Positions 5,768 to 60,316 of a DNA stretch of 64,000 bases are shown piece after piece (within the stretch, counting starts at the first letter, position 1; each line of letters starts with the position of its first letter). The notes beneath the pieces are model-generated. The model ran no database searches, was not told where the DNA came from, and saw only the letters and a list, made by a program, of their open reading frames with translations. Position numbers and translations under genes: made by a program. The DNA lies in IMG/VR virus record IMGVR_UViG_3300045988_085459; one strand, given 5' to 3'. This DNA is from a virus.

Positions 5768-6544
5768 ATGATATTTAGTGTAAATTATCATTCCAGCAAT
5801 ATAAAAATGGCTGGAGAAATACGTTGCCCCTACAATCAATTAGGAACAATTATTAAATTTCTTAAAGAAAATCCAAATAAAAGGTGTAATATAATTATTC
5901 CAGATGAATTAACTCAGGTGCAATTAACAAGATTGGCTGAGCAAGTTGAGATAATTAAAACAATAGCAAATGATTACACTATTCAATGCGGAAACATATA
6001 TCAATTAAATGATTTAAAAGATATGGGATATAATAGATATTTGCGGTTCCCGGTTACTGATTGGGAAACTTTTCAAGAATTGCGGGAGGCCAAGGTTAGT
6101 GATATCTATATAGATGGACCATTAGGGTTTCAAATGGAGTTATTAGAAAAGGTTAAAGGAGATATTAAGATAAGAGTATCACCCACCATTTCCCCTAATG
6201 TCTCCCTATCCGCAGAAAGAAAACCTTCAAGTTTTTTTATTCGCCCGGAGGATCTCCATTTATATTCTGCTATTGATGTAATAGATTTTAAGCAACCTAA
6301 TTTAGAAAAAGAAGATACTTTGTTTAATATCTATAATAGAGGTTCATTTAATTATGACATAAATCTTCTTATTGATGGCTTACCGGCAAGAAATAATCTA
6401 ACATTTAAAGAAACATTTGCAAAAACTCGTTTAAACTGTGGGCAAAAATGTAATATACCCGGTCATTCTTGTCATTATTGTGATACTTATTTTTCAGTAA
6501 TCTCGCATTTCCATGAACTTGCTAGACTTAGCAAAAAGAAATAA
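5768..6544 (+). CDS. hypothetical protein
   Basis: ORF track 258 aa; AAAGGAGGG SD. Confidence 0.6.
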   Translation: MIFSVNYHSSNIKMAGEIRCPYNQLGTIIKFLKENPNKRCNIIIPDELTQVQLTRLAEQVEIIKTIANDYTIQCGNIYQLNDLKDMGYNRYLRFPVTDWETFQELREAKVSDIYIDGPLGFQMELLEKVKGDIKIRVSPTISPNVSLSAERKPSSFFIRPEDLHLYSAIDVIDFKQPNLEKEDTLFNIYNRGSFNYDINLLIDGLPARNNLTFKETFAKTRLNCGQKCNIPGHSCHYCDTYFSVISHFHELARLSKKK

Positions 6545-6609
6545 TTAGATTTTATTATTTTTATATATTATAATATTATTATAAAGATAATAAAAGGAGT
6601 GTTTCTAAA

Positions 6610-7323
6610 GTGAAATGGTCGGAAATTCTTCCTCAAGAGGCACTGGATTTAAGTGTTCAACTTGAAAATCATGCTTTAGAAGAGCGCTCTAAAGGAAAGA
6701 TTTTATTTCCAGAATAGGATAAAATCTTTAGAGCGCTTAATCTTACGCATCCAGAAGATGTAAAAGTTTGTATTGTAGGACAAGACCCGTATCATACCCC
6801 AGGCGCAGCAAACGGGTTAGCATTTTCTATTTCTGATGGGAGCCCCATTCAACCATCTTTAAGAAATATTTTTAGCGAACTTAATAGCGATTTAGGGATT
6901 CCAATTCCGCGGTCTGGAGATTTAACATCTTGGGCAGAAAGAGGAGTATTGCTTCTTAATGCAAGTTTAACTGTCTATGAACATCAAGCCAATAGCTGCG
7001 TTAATTGGGGATGGAGTAGGTTTACAACAGCGGTGCTGAAAGCCGCAACCCATTTGCCACAACCTATTGTTTTTATGTTATGGGGAGCTAATGCTCAGAA
7101 TTTATTAAAAGATTTAAATTCTAGTCCTATGGTATGGGATGGACCTGGAGTTGCCAGAGAGAATTTGATTAAGAAGGCTTATATTTTATCTTCCCATCCA
7201 AGTCCTTTTAGTGTAAGTAAACCATGCAAAGGAACTCCTGCGTTTAAAGGTAGTAAACCGTTTTCAACAGCGAATGATTTATTGCTTTCTATGGGTGGAG
7301 AACCGATTGATTGGAGTTTATAA
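6610..7323 (+). CDS. ung: uracil-DNA glycosylase family 1, one in-frame TAG at 6715-6717
   Basis: GTG start after AAAAGGAG SD; motifs VCIVGQDPYHTPGAANGLAFSI, GVLLLN and HPSPFS match Ung; the TAG sits between ILFPE and DKIFRAL where E. coli Ung has PPQKDVF. Confidence 0.85.
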
Positions 7324-9434: not shown

Positions 9435-9507
9435 ACTCCGGTAGTTCAAAGGTTAGAACGGGCGACTTATAATCGCTTGATGCTTGGTTCGAGTCCAGCT
9501 CGGAGTA
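9435..9507 (+). tRNA. tRNA-Ile (anticodon TAT)
   Basis: Acceptor ACTCCGG/TCGGAGT, D-arm GTTC-AAAGGTTA-GAAC, anticodon arm GGCGA-CTTATAA-TCGCT, T-loop TTCGAGT, CCA encoded. Confidence 0.7.
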
Positions 9508-49903: not shown

Positions 49904-50758
49904 ATGGGATATAACATTAAAAAACATAGTCTCTATTCTTATGTTCAAATTGTAACAATTCCATTCGCAGACATTGAAAAAATTGACTTTGCCTTATGCA
50001 ATCAACCGACGGAAACTCCAGATGCTTATTATAAAAGACAGACTACTAAACCAGATATTATTACTAATGGAGGGTTCTTTGCTATGAACAATGGCAATAC
50101 CTGCTTTAGTTATAAAGACGAAGGAACTGTTATTTAGTCTGATTTTCGTCATGGAGTTGCAATTAGCGGCAATAAAACACTTATATATACGACATTAAAA
50201 GATTATGAAACCGCCAGAGATTTTATTGCAGCTTATCCTGCATTAATTGTAGATAGCAAAAAAGTAGTTATAACAGATGGAAAAGAATTAGATCATAAAG
50301 CCCGCAGGACTTGTATTGGATGGAATAAAAATAATTATTATATTGTAACCGTAGATTCTCCAGGTCTTGTTTATGCTGCCCTATAGCAAATTTTTCTTGA
50401 ATTGAAAGTAGAATATGCTATTAATTTAGATGGAGGCGGATCTACTAGATTACTAATAGATGGGAAAAGAAAAACTTCTCAAATTTATGCAAGACCAGTT
50501 GATAATGTAATGTGTGTATATTTTAAGAAAGAACAAGAGGTAGTTCTTTACAGAGTTCAAGTAGGAGCATTTCTATCTAAAACCAATGCAGAGAATATGT
50601 TAAAGGAATTGGAAGAGAAAGGATTTAGCGGGTATGTCAAGAAAGTAGGAATTTTTTATAAAGTTCAATTAGGTGCTTTCTCTGTGAAATTAAATGCAGA
50701 AAGACTAAAAGATAAATTAAAATCTGCTGGATATAGCTCTTTCATTACAAAAAAATAA
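49904..50758 (+). CDS. DUF2233 (phosphodiester glycosidase-like) domain protein with two C-terminal SPOR repeats, 2 in-frame TAG
   Basis: ATG 49904 after AAAGGAGATAAAGT SD; NGGFF ... NLDGGGST; YRVQVGAFLSKTNAENMLKEL and YKVQLGAFSVKLNAERLKDKL are SPOR-like; TAG at 50135 and 50384 read through. Confidence 0.6.
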
Positions 50759-50760
50759 AA

Positions 50761-51939
50761 ATGACTAATGCTCAAATTATTTGGAAATACTTTAAAGGCA
50801 AAGGTTTTAGTGATTGCGGAATTGCCGGTTTAATGGGTAATCTTTATGCCGAAAGTGGACTTAATTCTATTAACTTATAGAACACCTATGAAAAAAAATT
50901 AAAAATGACCGACGCAGGATATACCTCCGCAGTTGATGATGGAAGGTATAAAAACTTTGTAAAAGATGGAGCGGGATATGGATTGGCTCAATGGACATTT
51001 TGGAGTAGAAAACAAAATTTGCTTTAGTTCTGTCAAAGTCGAGGCAAATCCATTGGAGATTTAAATACTCAATTAGATTTTTTATATTAGGAGTTAATTA
51101 CAAGTTTTTCTAGTTTAGTTAAAATTTTGATTTCTGCCACTTCTGTCACAGAAGCCTCTACCGCGGTATTACTCTAGTTTGAAAGACCTTCAGACTAGAG
51201 TTTTTCTATGCAACAAAAGAGGGCTAATTATGGTCAATAGTATTATAATAAATTTGCTAACATTTCAAATGTAATTGAAGGAGGTAATAAAATGAAATAT
51301 AGCGATAGCAATAAACCACTTCAATGTATGATGACAAATAGCACTTGCTATAAACAAACACGCACCATGCAAGTTAAAGGAATCTTATGGCATAGTACTG
51401 GTGCAAATAATCCTAATTTAAAAAGATATGTATAGCCAAGCGATAATGATCCTAACTACACCAGTTTAATAAATAAATTAGGAAAAAATACTAGCAAGAA
51501 TGACTGGAATCATATATCTGTTCAAGCTGGATTAAACTGTTGGATTGGTAAATTGGCTGATGGAACAGTAACAACAGTATAGACAATGCCATGGAATTAT
51601 CGTCCTTGGGGATGCGGTTCTGGGTCTAAAGGTTCTTGTAATAATGGATGGATTCAGTTTGAAATTTGCGAAGATGGATTAAATGATGCAAATTATTTTA
51701 ACAAAATTTATGAAGAGGCTTGTCAAATTACTGCTTATTTATGTAAAATGTATAACATAAATCCATTGGGAACCACTACTTTAAATGGTATCACCGTTCC
51801 GACTATTTTATGTCATGCTGATAGTCACAAGCTAGGATTAGGATCTAATCATGCAGATGTAAACCATTGGTTTCCAAAATTTGGAAAAAGCATGGAAACC
51901 GCAAGAACAGATGTTTATAATTTAATGTCAAATATCTAG
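50761..51939 (+). CDS. two-domain endolysin (phage lysozyme-like N-domain plus type 2 amidase/PGRP C-domain), 8 in-frame TAG
   Basis: ATG 50761; frame open to TAA 51937 only if eight TAGs are read as sense; N-domain GIAGLMGNLYAESGLNS ... GYGLAQWTFWSRK; C-domain ILWHSTGANNP ... CHADSHKLGLGSNHAD; internal ATG 51293 has its own GAAGGAGG SD. Confidence 0.6.
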
Positions 51940-51954
51940 GAGGATGATGAAGAT

Positions 51955-52170
51955 ATGACTGACGAGAAATTCGCTGAACTTATGAATACTTGGCTTACTA
52001 ATAAAGCTAATGAAAAAGAAACTTGGGGCACCGATAATCTTGAATGGGCTAAAGCGAATGGGATTATGGCTGGAGACAGTGCTGGAAGAATGATGCCAAA
52101 TAAATTCTGCACTAGATTAGAAACTGTAACTATGTTAAGAAGATTGGCTGAAAAGCTGGGTTTAAAATGA
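51955..52170 (+). CDS. hypothetical protein
   Basis: ORF track 71 aa. Confidence 0.45.
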   Translation: MTDEKFAELMNTWLTNKANEKETWGTDNLEWAKANGIMAGDSAGRMMPNKFCTRLETVTMLRRLAEKLGLK

Positions 52171-52502
52171 AAAAATTAGAATTTTCCAAAAAACTTATAA
52201 ATGATATTCGTATGTTATTATGGGTCGTGACTGTGTCAGGTATCCTTTTGGCATTTATGTGTGTTTATATGGGATATTTAGGAACCCTTCCATGGATTAG
52301 TGCTCTTGTTGGTCTACCATGGAGCGCCCACGGAGTAGTTTGTTCTTTTTATTTAGCAATGGCTAAATCAGATCACAAAAAAGGCGGCATTACTTATGAC
52401 CTAGCTTTAAAAGAAACTGAATTCAATTCTGCATATAACATCCCCGCAGAAGATTTTTCAGCCTCTAATGATATTCCCATTGATCTCGATGGTCCTATTT
52501 AA
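52167..52502 (+). CDS. membrane protein, possible holin
   Basis: ORF track 111 aa; two TM helices; next to the endolysin. Confidence 0.4.
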   Translation: MKKLEFSKKLINDIRMLLWVVTVSGILLAFMCVYMGYLGTLPWISALVGLPWSAHGVVCSFYLAMAKSDHKKGGITYDLALKETEFNSAYNIPAEDFSASNDIPIDLDGPI

Positions 52503-52504
52503 TA

Positions 52505-52550
52505 TAAAGGCTTAATGAGTTAAATACTCATTAAGCCTTTATTTGTTTGT
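52505..52550 (+). terminator. rho-independent terminator
   Basis: AAAGGCTTAATGAGT-taaat-ACTCATTAAGCCTTT then ATTTGTTTGT. Confidence 0.75.
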
Positions 52551-52628
52551 AGTTTGATTTTTCTTAAAATATATGATATTATATATTAAGAAAATAAAAA
52601 GAATAAAAATAAAGGAGCATTTGTATTT

Positions 52629-53093
52629 ATGACTATATATACTGATGGTTCTTGCTTAGGAAATCCCGGTCCAGGAGGTTTTGGGGTTATAGTAGTTGAT
52701 GATAATGGTATTGTTATAGCTGCTTATACAGAGCGTGAACCTAAAACTACTAATAATAGAATGGAAATGTCTGCTATAATTTATGCTCTTGAAAACTATG
52801 GAGCTAAAGATGGAGATTTCTTTGCCCCTATTGTTTATAGCGATTCCGCTTATTGTGTAAATAGTTTTACTTCATGGATTAAAGGATGGAAAGCTAATGG
52901 TTGGACAAGAGCTGGAGGTAAAAAGCTAGAAAATCTTGATTTAATTAAGACCTATGATATGTTAAGCAAAGACTATAGAATTGATTTAAGAAAAATCAAA
53001 GGTCATGACGGAGAGCTTTATAATGAACTAGCTGATGCATTAGCTACTGGAAGAATGACCTCAGAAGAAATTTTAAGAGAGTATGGTGAATAA
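52629..53093 (+). CDS. rnhA: ribonuclease HI
   Basis: ORF track 154 aa; IYTDGSCLGNPGPGGFG. Confidence 0.8.
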   Translation: MTIYTDGSCLGNPGPGGFGVIVVDDNGIVIAAYTEREPKTTNNRMEMSAIIYALENYGAKDGDFFAPIVYSDSAYCVNSFTSWIKGWKANGWTRAGGKKLENLDLIKTYDMLSKDYRIDLRKIKGHDGELYNELADALATGRMTSEEILREYGE

Positions 53094-54983
53094 ATGTCAG
53101 ATAAGTTATATAATGAAAAAAGTATTGAGTCATTAAGTCCTCTAGAATTTACTCGTTTAAGACCTGGGGTATATTGTGGAGATACATCAACTTCTACTCA
53201 ATTAGTAGTAGAGATTGTATCAAACTCGGTAGATGAATTTAGATTGGGTCACGGTAATGAAATAGACGTACAAATTAATGGTGCCAGAGTGTCTGTCAGC
53301 GATCATGGTCAAGGATTTATTCCTAATTCTTTTAGAGAAGATGGGAAAACAATTTTGGAAGCCGCATTTAGTGTATTAAATACCAGTGGTAAATATAGAG
53401 AAGATGGAACTTATGAGGGAACTTCTCTTGGTAGTTTTGGTATTGGTAGCAAACTTGCAACTTATCTTAGTCATGAATTAACTGTGTGGACATATAGAGA
53501 TGGAGAAGGAGAACAAGTAAGATTCAAAGAGGGCATTTTTGAATCTAGAGATTCTTGTAAGGTTGATAAAAATGTTCATGGAACTTCTGTTTTCTGGATT
53601 GCAAGTGAAGAGTTTTTTACTGATCCAAAGCCAGACGCAAAAGCATTAAACTCCTTATTTAAAACTATTGTATGTCTCTGTCCGGGGCTAACTATCAAAC
53701 TAGATGATAATGGAAAAAAGACAGAGTTCTTCTCTAAGAATGGTCTTATGGATTTGTTAGATGAAGGCGTTAAGGGAAAAGAGATTCTGAAAAATCGTTT
53801 CTCAATTAATTTTTCCGAAGGTAAAAATAAGTTGGATTTAGCTCTAACTTACACAAATAACTACTCTTCTACGATTGTTCCATATGTAAATACTGGTTTA
53901 ACAGAAGCAGGTCCGCATATTACGCAAATTAAAACCCTTTTAACAAGAGAATTTAATAAATTCTTCCGAGAAAAAGGGTGGCTAAAAGATAAGGATGAAA
54001 ATCTCTCTGGAGATGATTGCCAAGAAGGAATGTATCTTGTTTTTAATATTACAGCACCAAATATTGGATATGATGCTCAAGTAAAATCTCGTGTCACAAA
54101 ACTAGATATGAAACCTTTTACACAAGCAATAGCAGAAGAGCTGCAATATTGGTTCACAACAAATGAAAAAGAAATTAAAAGTATCGCGGATAAAGCATTA
54201 AATGCTAGAAAAGCAAGAGAGGCAGCTCGTAAAGCAAGAGAGGCAGCAAGAGGAATAAAGACAAAGAAAGAAACCGGATTAAAGGCAAAAATGAAACTTA
54301 GTAATAAGTTTATTGATTGCGGAAATCGTAGTCCTAAAGATCGTAATCTCTTGCTTGTTGAGGGACTATCAGCAGGAGCTTCCGCAGTAGAAGCACGAAA
54401 TCCTAAAACTGATTGCATTTATATGTTGCGAGGAAAGATTATCAGCCCATTAAAGACTGCTATTGATAAGCTGCTTTCTAACCAAGAAATGTCTGATATT
54501 ATTAGGATCCTTGGTGGAGGTTTTGGTAAAGATTTTGATATTAGTAAATTGACCGTTGATAAAGTTGTAATCACGGCCGATGCAGATAGTGATGGTGCAG
54601 ATATTGAATTAATGCTTATTACTTTCTTCTATACATATATGCGTCCTCTTATTGAAGCTGGTAAGTTATATAGAGCTGTAACTCCATTATATATTATTCG
54701 ACAAAAAGGAAAAGAGTATTACTGTTATAGTGACAATGAACTTGAAGAGTGGAAAAAGAATCATAGCGGCAGTTATGATTTACTTAGAGCTAAGGGATTG
54801 GGAGAATTAAATCCAGAGGATCTGCAAAAAGTATGTTTTATGAATGAAAGATATAAACGCATTACTATTAGTGATGCCAAAGCTACCACAGAATTGCTCG
54901 AAATTTTGATGGGAAGCGCAGTTGAACCCCGCAAGCAATATATCTATGATAATGCAGAAGAATTAGGATTTAATTTTGAATGA
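53094..54983 (+). CDS. type II DNA topoisomerase, ATPase/Toprim subunit (GyrB / T4 gp39-like)
   Basis: ORF track 629 aa; GHKL ATPase region, Toprim LLLVEGLSAG and DADSDG. Confidence 0.85.
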   Translation: MSDKLYNEKSIESLSPLEFTRLRPGVYCGDTSTSTQLVVEIVSNSVDEFRLGHGNEIDVQINGARVSVSDHGQGFIPNSFREDGKTILEAAFSVLNTSGKYREDGTYEGTSLGSFGIGSKLATYLSHELTVWTYRDGEGEQVRFKEGIFESRDSCKVDKNVHGTSVFWIASEEFFTDPKPDAKALNSLFKTIVCLCPGLTIKLDDNGKKTEFFSKNGLMDLLDEGVKGKEILKNRFSINFSEGKNKLDLALTYTNNYSSTIVPYVNTGLTEAGPHITQIKTLLTREFNKFFREKGWLKDKDENLSGDDCQEGMYLVFNITAPNIGYDAQVKSRVTKLDMKPFTQAIAEELQYWFTTNEKEIKSIADKALNARKAREAARKAREAARGIKTKKETGLKAKMKLSNKFIDCGNRSPKDRNLLLVEGLSAGASAVEARNPKTDCIYMLRGKIISPLKTAIDKLLSNQEMSDIIRILGGGFGKDFDISKLTVDKVVITADADSDGADIELMLITFFYTYMRPLIEAGKLYRAVTPLYIIRQKGKEYYCYSDNELEEWKKNHSGSYDLLRAKGLGELNPEDLQKVCFMNERYKRITISDAKATTELLEILMGSAVEPRKQYIYDNAEELGFNFE

Positions 54984-59404: not shown

Positions 59405-59962
59405 ATGATTATAGGGTTATTATTAATTACTATAATCGGGTTAATAATTTATATCTATTATCTCAAGAAACAAGAGCATCAAATAATTGAAGTTAATATA
59501 GATAATTAGAGGAAAAACTCCGAGATAGAATAGGAAATAAAACATAATAGAGAAGTATTATCTAATATAAAAGAAAATATATACTCTGAAAATGAAATTC
59601 TTTCTTCTCTAGTAAAATCTTAGGAAGAAATGCGGGAAAATGCACAAAAGCAAGCTGATGAGGCATACTAGATTCGCATTTCCGCACTTTTAAAATCCTA
59701 TGAAGAAAAAGAAAATGAGCTTACTATGACTTTTGATGCTAAAAGTCAAGATTTATCAAATAAAATTTCTATCGAATCCAGTAAATTAGCGGATTTACAA
59801 GCTAAACAACTTGCTTATATTTAGGCTCAACTAAGATAGGAAGAGATTGACTCTAATCAAGATTACTATCGTTTAGCTCTTGATGAAATTGATATAAATG
59901 ATATTACATTATTGCGTGAGTTGCAACCTAGATTTGTCAAAAAAGAAAGCATAGATAAGTTA
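59405..59962 (+). CDS. membrane-anchored coiled-coil protein, 7 in-frame TAG
   Basis: ATG 59405; N-terminal TM helix MIIGLLLITIIGLIIYIYY then heptad-rich sequence; open to TAA 59960 only with TAG as sense. Confidence 0.45.
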
Positions 59963-59970
59963 ATATGGGA

Positions 59971-60316
59971 AGTGTATTATAAACCAGCTTATGATATATT
60001 AACAGCTCGGTTATTCCCAAAAGCAATTAAATATTGTGGGATTTATAGGATAACTGATTTGACCACTGGGAAATCCTATATAGGATAGTCAGTTGATATA
60101 AAAGAACGTTTTAGACAACATATTAAATCTGCTTTAACTTACGGAAAAGCAACCAATAAACTATATTCTACCATGTAGAAATCTGGAGTTCATAATTTTA
60201 CCTTTGAGATTTTAGAAGAAGTTTCAAGGGAAAATTTAAATGAGAGAGAAACTTATTGGATTGAGTTTTATAAAACGAAAGATTTTGGTTTAAATACTAC
60301 TCGCGGAGGATCTTAA
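59971..60316 (+). CDS. GIY-YIG endonuclease domain protein, 2 in-frame TAG, start uncertain
   Basis: Frame open from 59920 (after TGA) to TAA 60314; GIYRITDLTTGKSYIG[Q]SVDIKERFRQH ... RETYWIEFYKTKDFGLNTTRGGS; no in-frame ATG upstream of the motif; GTG 59971 is the first plausible start. Confidence 0.55.

Follow-up and report, generated by a model that had tools for sequence, protein, structure and literature searches.

The DNA considered here is a stretch of 64,000 nt from the IMG/VR virus record IMGVR_UViG_3300045988_085459; we call this whole stretch the window, and all coordinates are positions in it unless another locus is named. Between 49904 and 52502 lie three genes, all on the plus strand (Table 1). 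Gene A encodes a protein with an NAGPA/DUF2233-like domain and a SPOR domain, gene B encodes an endolysin, and the third gene encodes a candidate holin-like membrane protein. The best explanation of this arrangement is a three-gene late lysis cassette of a gut phage of about 146 to 150 kb that reads TAG as glutamine (Gln), and we give this explanation as a whole a probability of about 0.75. Open reading frames (ORFs) were called with only TAA and TGA counted as stops and with TAG read as Gln. The initial annotation of this DNA had already recognized a lysis module made of two enzymes, and its domain calls were right: NAGPA, SPOR, Phage_lysozyme2, and Amidase_2 are all supported by Pfam, and the predicted folds agree. 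The module itself is larger than described, since the holin-like gene also belongs to it.

Table 1. Features of the cassette, with the tRNA gene presumed to serve it
Feature	Position	Strand	Evidence or remark
Terminator-like hairpin, 12 pairs and T tract	49854-49881	+	Between PhoH/PIN gene and cassette
Gene A, NAGPA/DUF2233-like domain and SPOR, 284 aa	49904-50758	+	ORF, Pfam, predicted fold
Gene B, endolysin, 469 aa with TAG as Gln	50761-52170	+	ORF, Pfam, predicted fold, relatives
Predicted internal start 1	Shine-Dalgarno (SD) sequence GAAGGAGG 51277-51284, ATG 51292-51294	+	-13.8 kcal/mol; linker before amidase domain
Predicted internal start 2	SD sequence AGGAGGA 51938-51944, ATG 51955-51957	+	-10.7 kcal/mol; start of SLH motif
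Holin-like membrane protein (candidate), 111 aa	52167-52502	+	Position, size, hydrophobic segment(s)
Terminator-like hairpin, 17 pairs and T tract, closing the cassette	52504-52542	+	Stronger than the hairpin at 49854-49881
tRNA with anticodon CUA, presumed amber (TAG) suppressor	27598-27672	+	ARAGORN, which labels it Pyl

The endolysin is one continuous ORF, and it is longer than first described. It had been taken to end at 51939, but positions 51937 to 51939 are themselves a TAG, and the frame runs on to a TGA at 52168-52170. The ORF contains nine in-frame TAG codons (at 50878, 51025, 51088, 51175, 51196, 51238, 51433, 51580, and 51937). The eight counted in the initial annotation are those before 51937, and with the two in gene A the total rises from 10 to 11. 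Both of the catalytic domains named initially are present, with Phage_lysozyme2 at residues 3 to 165 (121.5 bits, 4e-35) and Amidase_2 at residues 202 to 353 (45 bits, 1.7e-11), and the predicted folds match phi29 gp13-N, AmiE, and PlyL. A third domain, an SLH motif at residues 422 to 454, has to be added. In the full-length protein it scores 19.8 bits, just under the Pfam cut-off of 20.8 bits, while the 71-aa C-terminal piece by itself scores 23.7 bits. A profile of this domain matches the SLH structures of Sap from Bacillus anthracis (6BT4 and 3PYW) at 9e-6, and the TRxE motif is present as TRLE. SLH motifs work as trimers, and three motifs in tandem form a binding pseudotrimer. The endolysin has a single SLH motif and not three in tandem, and its module would therefore need to oligomerize, as in the endolysin LysBT1.

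Relatives of the endolysin were collected from 80 viral-contig loci and 5 metagenome loci. With the 469-aa protein as the query, database proteins of 443 to 487 aa cover 94 to 100% of it as a single chain, and many relatives at 51 to 70% amino acid identity are without TAG and encode lysozyme, amidase, and an SLH- or SH3-type C-terminus in one ORF. Residue 393, the TAG at the junction to the SLH part, lies in a variable linker; the residue is most often Glu, is never replaced by TAA or TGA, and is otherwise a TAG only in the three closest relatives. A different catalytic domain is found on the same SLH tail, next to the same holin-like neighbor, at 5850-6641 of the related locus L183 and at 6875-7723 of L006, and therefore the cassette evolves by module swapping. 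In L006, the insertion of a GIY-YIG homing endonuclease separates the lysin from the holin-like gene. The nearest annotated relatives of the endolysin come from phages of Faecalibacterium, Oscillospiraceae, Evtepia, and Acutalibacter; on these grounds the host is probably a clostridial bacterium, with a weak indication of an Oscillospirales-like one. Within the endolysin gene, a strong hairpin at 51171-51201 on the plus strand (-16.5 kcal/mol, z = -4.7) is followed by a U tract and holds the TAGs at 51175 and 51196 in its arms. We considered it as a translation-sensitive attenuator and rejected this, as the hairpin is confined to the window, L011, and L083 and has disappeared in a relative at 91% identity. 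Most probably, it is incidental.

The reading of TAG as a sense codon is carried by several features of the two enzyme genes. Neither frame contains a TAA or a TGA, over 284 codons in gene A and 469 in gene B. In an alignment of 52 distinct endolysin relatives, residue 225 is Gln in 50 and TAG in 2, residue 274 is Gln in 47 and TAG in 5, residue 40 is Gln in 30 and TAG in 18, and residue 146 is Gln in 37. At six of the nine TAG columns, Gln is aligned more often than any other residue, and it makes up 33% of all residues aligned to any TAG, compared to a background of 4.4%. In gene A, the TAG codons lie at 50135-50137 (residue 78) and 50384-50386 (residue 161), the second of which aligns with Gln; among its relatives, TAGs hit two Gln residues of the SPOR domain (YRVqLGAF and WKIqLGAF) that are invariant in the family alignment of 50 sequences. 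The homologues without TAG encode continuous ORFs, not the separate small ORFs that genuine stops would have left. TAG is thus a sense codon, most likely for Gln. The presumed suppressor, the tRNA with anticodon CUA, has Lys and Trp tRNAs as its nearest matches (about 71%). Since its sequence does not show which amino acid it carries, the assignment of Gln comes from the alignments.

The suppressor gene is one of 31 tRNA genes that ARAGORN found at 9435-28729 on the plus strand. Rfam gave two further tRNA-like matches not listed by ARAGORN, at 19970-20086, which spans 117 nt and may include an intron, and at 20277-20361. Rfam also gave a full-length transfer-messenger RNA (tmRNA) at 17282-17602 on the plus strand within the tRNA array (76.8 bits against a gathering score of 47; E = 4.6e-28), which ARAGORN did not report. 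In a phage recoded at TAG, such a gene could be relevant to the rescue of ribosomes at ambers that escape suppression.

Gene A combines two domains, both above their Pfam cut-offs (25 bits for NAGPA and 21 bits for SPOR). NAGPA scores 72.5 bits (6.5e-20) at residues 52 to 206, within an NAGPA-like part of approximately residues 1 to 208, and SPOR scores 58.2 bits (1e-15) at residues 216 to 282. Structure prediction was run on near-identical database proteins (P0001 and P0122) in place of the window sequences. The gene A model, built from P0001 (98% identical to the window protein), has a predicted local distance difference test score (pLDDT) of 92, with vertebrate NAGPA and a Bacteroides DUF2233 protein ranking first among its PDB matches (Foldseek E of about 1e-9). 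The best solved match of the SPOR part is CwlC of Bacillus subtilis (1X60; E = 2.9e-12 by sequence), with a target-normalized template modeling score (TM-score) of 0.81; gene A has one such domain, and the second SPOR repeat of the initial annotation is not there. The JGI/IMG annotation of the same phage lists hypothetical proteins of 77 aa and 118 aa, which are the lengths of the first and last fragments of gene A under the standard code.

The motif DGGGS (D176 to S180) is invariant in the 50 family members, as is Arg197 downstream of it. In human NAGPA, the DGGGS loop is needed for the recognition of N-acetylglucosamine-1-phosphate and for catalysis (PMC13474241); no reliable mapping of other residues of the human enzyme onto gene A was obtained from sequence alignments. 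As the motif is kept, an action on teichoic-acid or polysaccharide linkages is plausible. By analogy, the substrate may be a sugar-1-phosphate diester of a wall polymer, for example in the unit that links teichoic acid or a secondary wall polymer to N-acetylmuramic acid (MurNAc). SPOR domains bind glycan strands from which amidases have removed the peptides (PMC6895207), which would fit a gene A product acting alongside the adjacent amidase. No signal peptide was found in the protein. Gene A may encode an accessory wall enzyme that is made in the cytoplasm and whose SPOR domain aims an NAGPA-type phosphodiester glycosidase at the wall.

In metagenomes, the gene A family gave 397 matches, the best 120 of which are all 243 to 335 aa long and nearly all of the same two-domain architecture; clustering at 50% leaves 79 clusters with E <= 1e-30. 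One full-length variant (P0392) was found on 250 contigs, and therefore the lineage is common in gut metagenomes. A scan of 185,579 species in GTDB revealed no cellular homologue exceeding 31% identity across most of the NAGPA domain, which therefore gives no indication of the host. Protein searches of 50,697 GenBank phage records found neither a full-length NAGPA-SPOR protein nor a three-domain endolysin, and a nucleotide search with 48500-53200 against the same records returned no relative, the sole matches being short ones in PhoH and RNase H. To judge from these searches, the NAGPA-SPOR family appears to be phage-specific. The pairing had been called unusual for a phage; this is true of the pair, which is absent from isolated phages, but not of the NAGPA domain, which hundreds of metagenomic phage proteins contain. 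NAGPA domains of the same clade are found fused to Amidase_2, Amidase_3, Peptidase_M23, SH3_3, and SLH, phage proteins with the NAGPA fold bear names such as PlyB-like endolysin, CHAP domain protein, and autolysin in UniProt, and a 2026 survey of gut-phage endolysins includes the architecture CHAP-NAGPA-SH3_3 (PMC13284279). In the window lineage, L006, and L183, the NAGPA-SPOR gene lies directly upstream of a lysin and a holin-like gene, and L183 shares the PhoH, RNase H, and gyrase synteny with the window; in L185, the gene lies upstream of an amidase-SH3 lysin. Given the fusions to wall hydrolases and the repeated linkage to lysin genes, the NAGPA-like domain looks like a lysin module.

The third gene starts within the stop codon of the endolysin gene (ATGA) and has a weak SD sequence. 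Its product has at least one strongly hydrophobic segment and may be the membrane protein that gives the enzymes access to the wall. A homologue adjoins the endolysin in most relatives, and in 19 of 27 loci its first codon either overlaps the endolysin stop or is at most 4 nt away. Most genes of the window have SD strengths between -7 and -14 kcal/mol, including gene A with -11.5 kcal/mol (AAAGGAG). The endolysin's own ATG, 2 nt past the stop of gene A, has no SD sequence, whereas relatives without gene A upstream have a strong one at this start. The missing SD sequence at the endolysin ATG and the weak one at the overlapping ATG of the holin-like gene suggest serial translational coupling from gene A to the endolysin and on to the holin-like gene. 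A promoter-like site with an extended -10 (TG), at 52554-52582 on the plus strand, comes just past the closing terminator and precedes the RNase H and gyrase genes.

Two sites within the endolysin gene look like additional translation starts (Table 1). Among 53 distinct endolysin sequences, an ATG with an SD sequence is present at the border of the amidase domain in all 53 (mean -12.3 kcal/mol) and at the SLH border in 40 (mean -11.8 kcal/mol), while the remaining in-frame ATGs have a mean of only -3.7 kcal/mol; the 13 sequences without an ATG at the SLH border include all relatives with an SH3-type C-terminus. Both starts fall in the only inter-domain segments with a pLDDT below 50 (residues 168 to 176 and 393 to 398), and GGAGG is kept while the linker peptides vary among relatives. 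The TAG at 51937 overlaps the SD sequence of the second start. The predicted products are probably the full-length protein of 469 aa (nine TAGs), an amidase-SLH protein of 292 aa (three TAGs), and the SLH motif alone (71 aa, no TAG). The amidase-SLH form corresponds to a stand-alone endolysin gene in L006. It is well established that endolysin genes can have internal starts (PMC9430671), and LysBT1, an endolysin with a single SLH motif, trimerizes through it (PMC12285257). By analogy, the two conserved sites would add amidase-SLH and free SLH chains to the full-length enzyme, and the SLH-bearing chains could assemble via this motif; because SLH acts as a trimer and LysBT1 trimerizes, the extra chains could complete the trimer.

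Several points weigh against the interpretation of the locus as a suppressor-dependent lysis cassette with nested endolysin products. The evidence consists throughout of sequence comparison and predicted structures. Three of the nine TAG columns of the endolysin (residues 89, 160, and 393) are variable and uninformative on the amino acid, and the suppressor tRNA has no special similarity to the phage's own tRNA-Gln genes. The holin-like protein has no match in Pfam or PHROG and is assigned by its position, size, and hydrophobic segments. Matches to a sigma-70 promoter are no more common than in shuffled sequence, and none is detectable for the cassette; we therefore claim no promoter. The sequence GAGGAGGA before the SLH start also codes for an acidic linker, and the start signal could partly reflect a constraint on the protein, although GAG is the less used codon for Glu (27%). 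In about two thirds of the other sampled lineages, the NAGPA-SPOR gene lies away from any detectable lysin, and it is absent from the cassette slot in relatives whose endolysin is 65% identical, and in L001 to L005.

The TAG load of the cassette is uneven with respect to its surroundings. Genes A and B together contain 11 TAGs in 753 codons, compared to none in the PhoH, RNase H, gyrase-like, and neighboring genes that flank them (2357 codons; Fisher p = 1.6e-7, or 5e-6 counting Gln-type codons only), an excess that chance does not explain. The endolysin had been said to have the densest TAG usage; it does have the highest count in the window, but its density of 19.2 TAGs per 1000 codons is exceeded by the ORFs at 59405-60316 (26.4) and 21946-22512 (26.6; tail-fiber-like). 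The former, on the plus strand, counts 8 TAGs among its 303 codons. It has an N-terminal hydrophobic segment, a long stretch resembling a coiled coil by eye, and, at the C-terminus, a GIY-YIG homing-endonuclease domain (phrog_314, 5.5e-21); its gene model is uncertain, with no SD sequence at the first ATG. The latter is the first of four plus-strand ORFs at 21946-26147, which have two to five TAGs each and lie between tRNA genes. It matches tail-fiber and tail-spike families. The families matched by the other three are all of unknown function, and an N-terminal motif is common to three of the four ORFs.

Lysis in its canonical form is timed by the holin. Here, the holin-like gene has neither a TAG nor a Gln codon, which weakens the idea of suppressor-timed lysis for this phage; timing could then be controlled only by way of translational coupling or transcription. 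The proposal of the initial annotation, that suppressor dependence of lysis genes blocks premature lysis, restates a hypothesis already published by Borges et al. (bioRxiv 10.1101/2021.08.26.457843). In our model, every catalytic product would need the phage tRNA(CUA), whereas the SLH-only piece and the holin-like protein have no TAG. The ambers would thus gate the catalytic enzymes and not the holin-like protein, which bears on the published idea that recoding times lysis. It is quite conceivable, although we lean the other way, that the enrichment has no regulatory role and reflects neutral CAG-to-TAG drift in genes expressed once the suppressor is abundant. The number and positions of TAGs in the endolysin vary (9, 10, or 11 at 91 to 98% identity and 0 to 5 at 51 to 70%), several TAGs are at variable sites, the gene expected to set timing has none here, and the homing-endonuclease-like ORF is as TAG-dense as the lysins. 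However, drift does not readily account for the TAG-free replication genes next to the cassette, for the bias toward lysis genes that Borges et al. reported to be independent of lineage (bioRxiv 10.1101/2021.08.26.457843), or for the one to three TAGs in the holin-like gene of recoded relatives.

The TAG at 51937 could also be wholly or partly a stop, leaving a lysozyme-amidase of 392 aa and a separate SLH piece (51955-52170) that associates with it later. We regard this as unlikely. Consistent with it are the SD sequence and the ATG, the latter 16 nt past the TAG, the variability of the column, and the SLH piece passing the Pfam threshold alone; furthermore, we infer that suppression in competition with the host release factor 1 (RF1) is unlikely to be complete. 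However, the SD sequence and ATG are equally conserved in relatives that have a sense codon at the junction of an unbroken ORF, and they therefore indicate an internal start rather than a separate gene. In addition, the other eight TAGs of the same ORF require readthrough in any case.

Equally improbable, in our view, is that gene A is not a lysis enzyme at all, being instead wall- or capsule-modifying, associated with entry, or a mobile accessory gene that came to lie beside the endolysin by chance. The empty slot in L001 to L005 is in line with this, as are the stand-alone NAGPA-SPOR genes of L007, L009, and L177 to L182, which are found among tRNA or replication genes, and the occurrence of the NAGPA domain in proteins of 800 to 1400 aa that are possibly virion or cell-surface proteins. 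Against it stand the position directly upstream of a lysin in the window lineage, L006, L183, and L185, with a holin-like gene next in all except L185, the fusion of NAGPA to amidase and M23 domains in one polypeptide, a SPOR domain of the type seen in endolysins, the lack of a signal peptide, and the endolysin start without an SD sequence 2 nt past the gene A stop. Finally, that the TAGs are genuine stops and the region consists of decayed or separate small ORFs, as table 11 (fragments of 31 to 118 aa) and the standard-code manner of the JGI/IMG annotation would have it, is hardly credible, as the fragments join in open frames into complete, confidently folded domains, the same proteins are unbroken in relatives without TAG, conserved Gln residues line up with the TAGs, and a CUA tRNA is encoded.

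Building on the lysis cassette as the preferred reading, we put forward a joint proposal, tentatively and with the odds against it: the NAGPA-like domain is an unrecognized lysin class, and three nested polypeptides build an SLH trimer in a ratio set by an amber codon. In this proposal, the NAGPA-like domain would cut the sugar-1-phosphate diester that ties teichoic acid or a secondary wall polymer, and with it the anchors of the surface layer (S-layer), to MurNAc, and SPOR would guide it to glycan strands freshly stripped by the partner amidase. Through the amber codon in the SD sequence of the last internal start, the level of the suppressor would decide how much of the enzyme carries SLH and how much lacks it. 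The cassette itself leads to two predictions, namely, that a phage NAGPA-like module attacks phosphodiester-linked wall polymers and that one endolysin gene gives rise to three nested products completing an SLH trimer. It is also a clean and well-supported example of how standard-code annotation fragments the lysis genes of recoded phages, and the corrected gene models may serve as enzybiotic parts for gut Clostridia.

The enzymes of the cassette are longer and more elaborate than the initial annotation had them, but the kind of system is one already described. Like the gut phages of genetic code 15 (Borges et al., bioRxiv 10.1101/2021.08.26.457843; Peters et al., PMC9523058; the phAss-1 group, PMC10607447), the phage has a large genome and a gut origin, TAG in lysis and tail-fiber genes, TAG-free replication genes, a suppressor tRNA(CUA) within a large tRNA set, and TAGs that align with Gln. 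The likeness is one of features, and the search of GenBank phages revealed no relative at the nucleotide level. Different from these phages, the lysis cassette is an island among TAG-free PhoH, RNase H, and gyrase genes, and the holin-like gene has no TAG.

The endolysin resembles Lys170/LysIME-EF1 (PMC7098653), CTP1L (PMC4777826), phi2638A (PMC12203907), and the enzymes of a survey (PMC9430671) in having an SD sequence and an in-frame ATG in an inter-domain linker, and its predicted C-terminal product shares the wall-binding module with the full-length enzyme. In contrast to the published cases, it has two nested sites, one of each published type, with three products predicted here from sequence, and its wall-binding module is an SLH motif. 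With LysBT1 of a Brevibacillus prophage (PMC12285257), it has in common an amidase followed by a single C-terminal SLH motif with TRxE, whereas the additional N-terminal lysozyme-like domain, the predicted internal starts, and the nine TAGs set it apart. Gene A shares its fold and the invariant DGGGS with the NAGPA uncovering enzyme and bacterial DUF2233 proteins (PF09992; 6PKU, 6U11, and 3OHG; PMC13474241), but at less than 20% identity, and it is a phage protein with a SPOR domain and without an epidermal growth factor (EGF) stalk or a membrane anchor. As in the SPOR lysins (CwlC, 1X60; the endolysin of Faecalibacterium phage FP_Lagaffe; phrog_20388; phrog_15001), a C-terminal SPOR domain is the wall-binding module, with 42% identity to CwlC over the aligned SPOR domain; in gene A, however, it is joined to an NAGPA-like domain instead of an amidase or a lysozyme.

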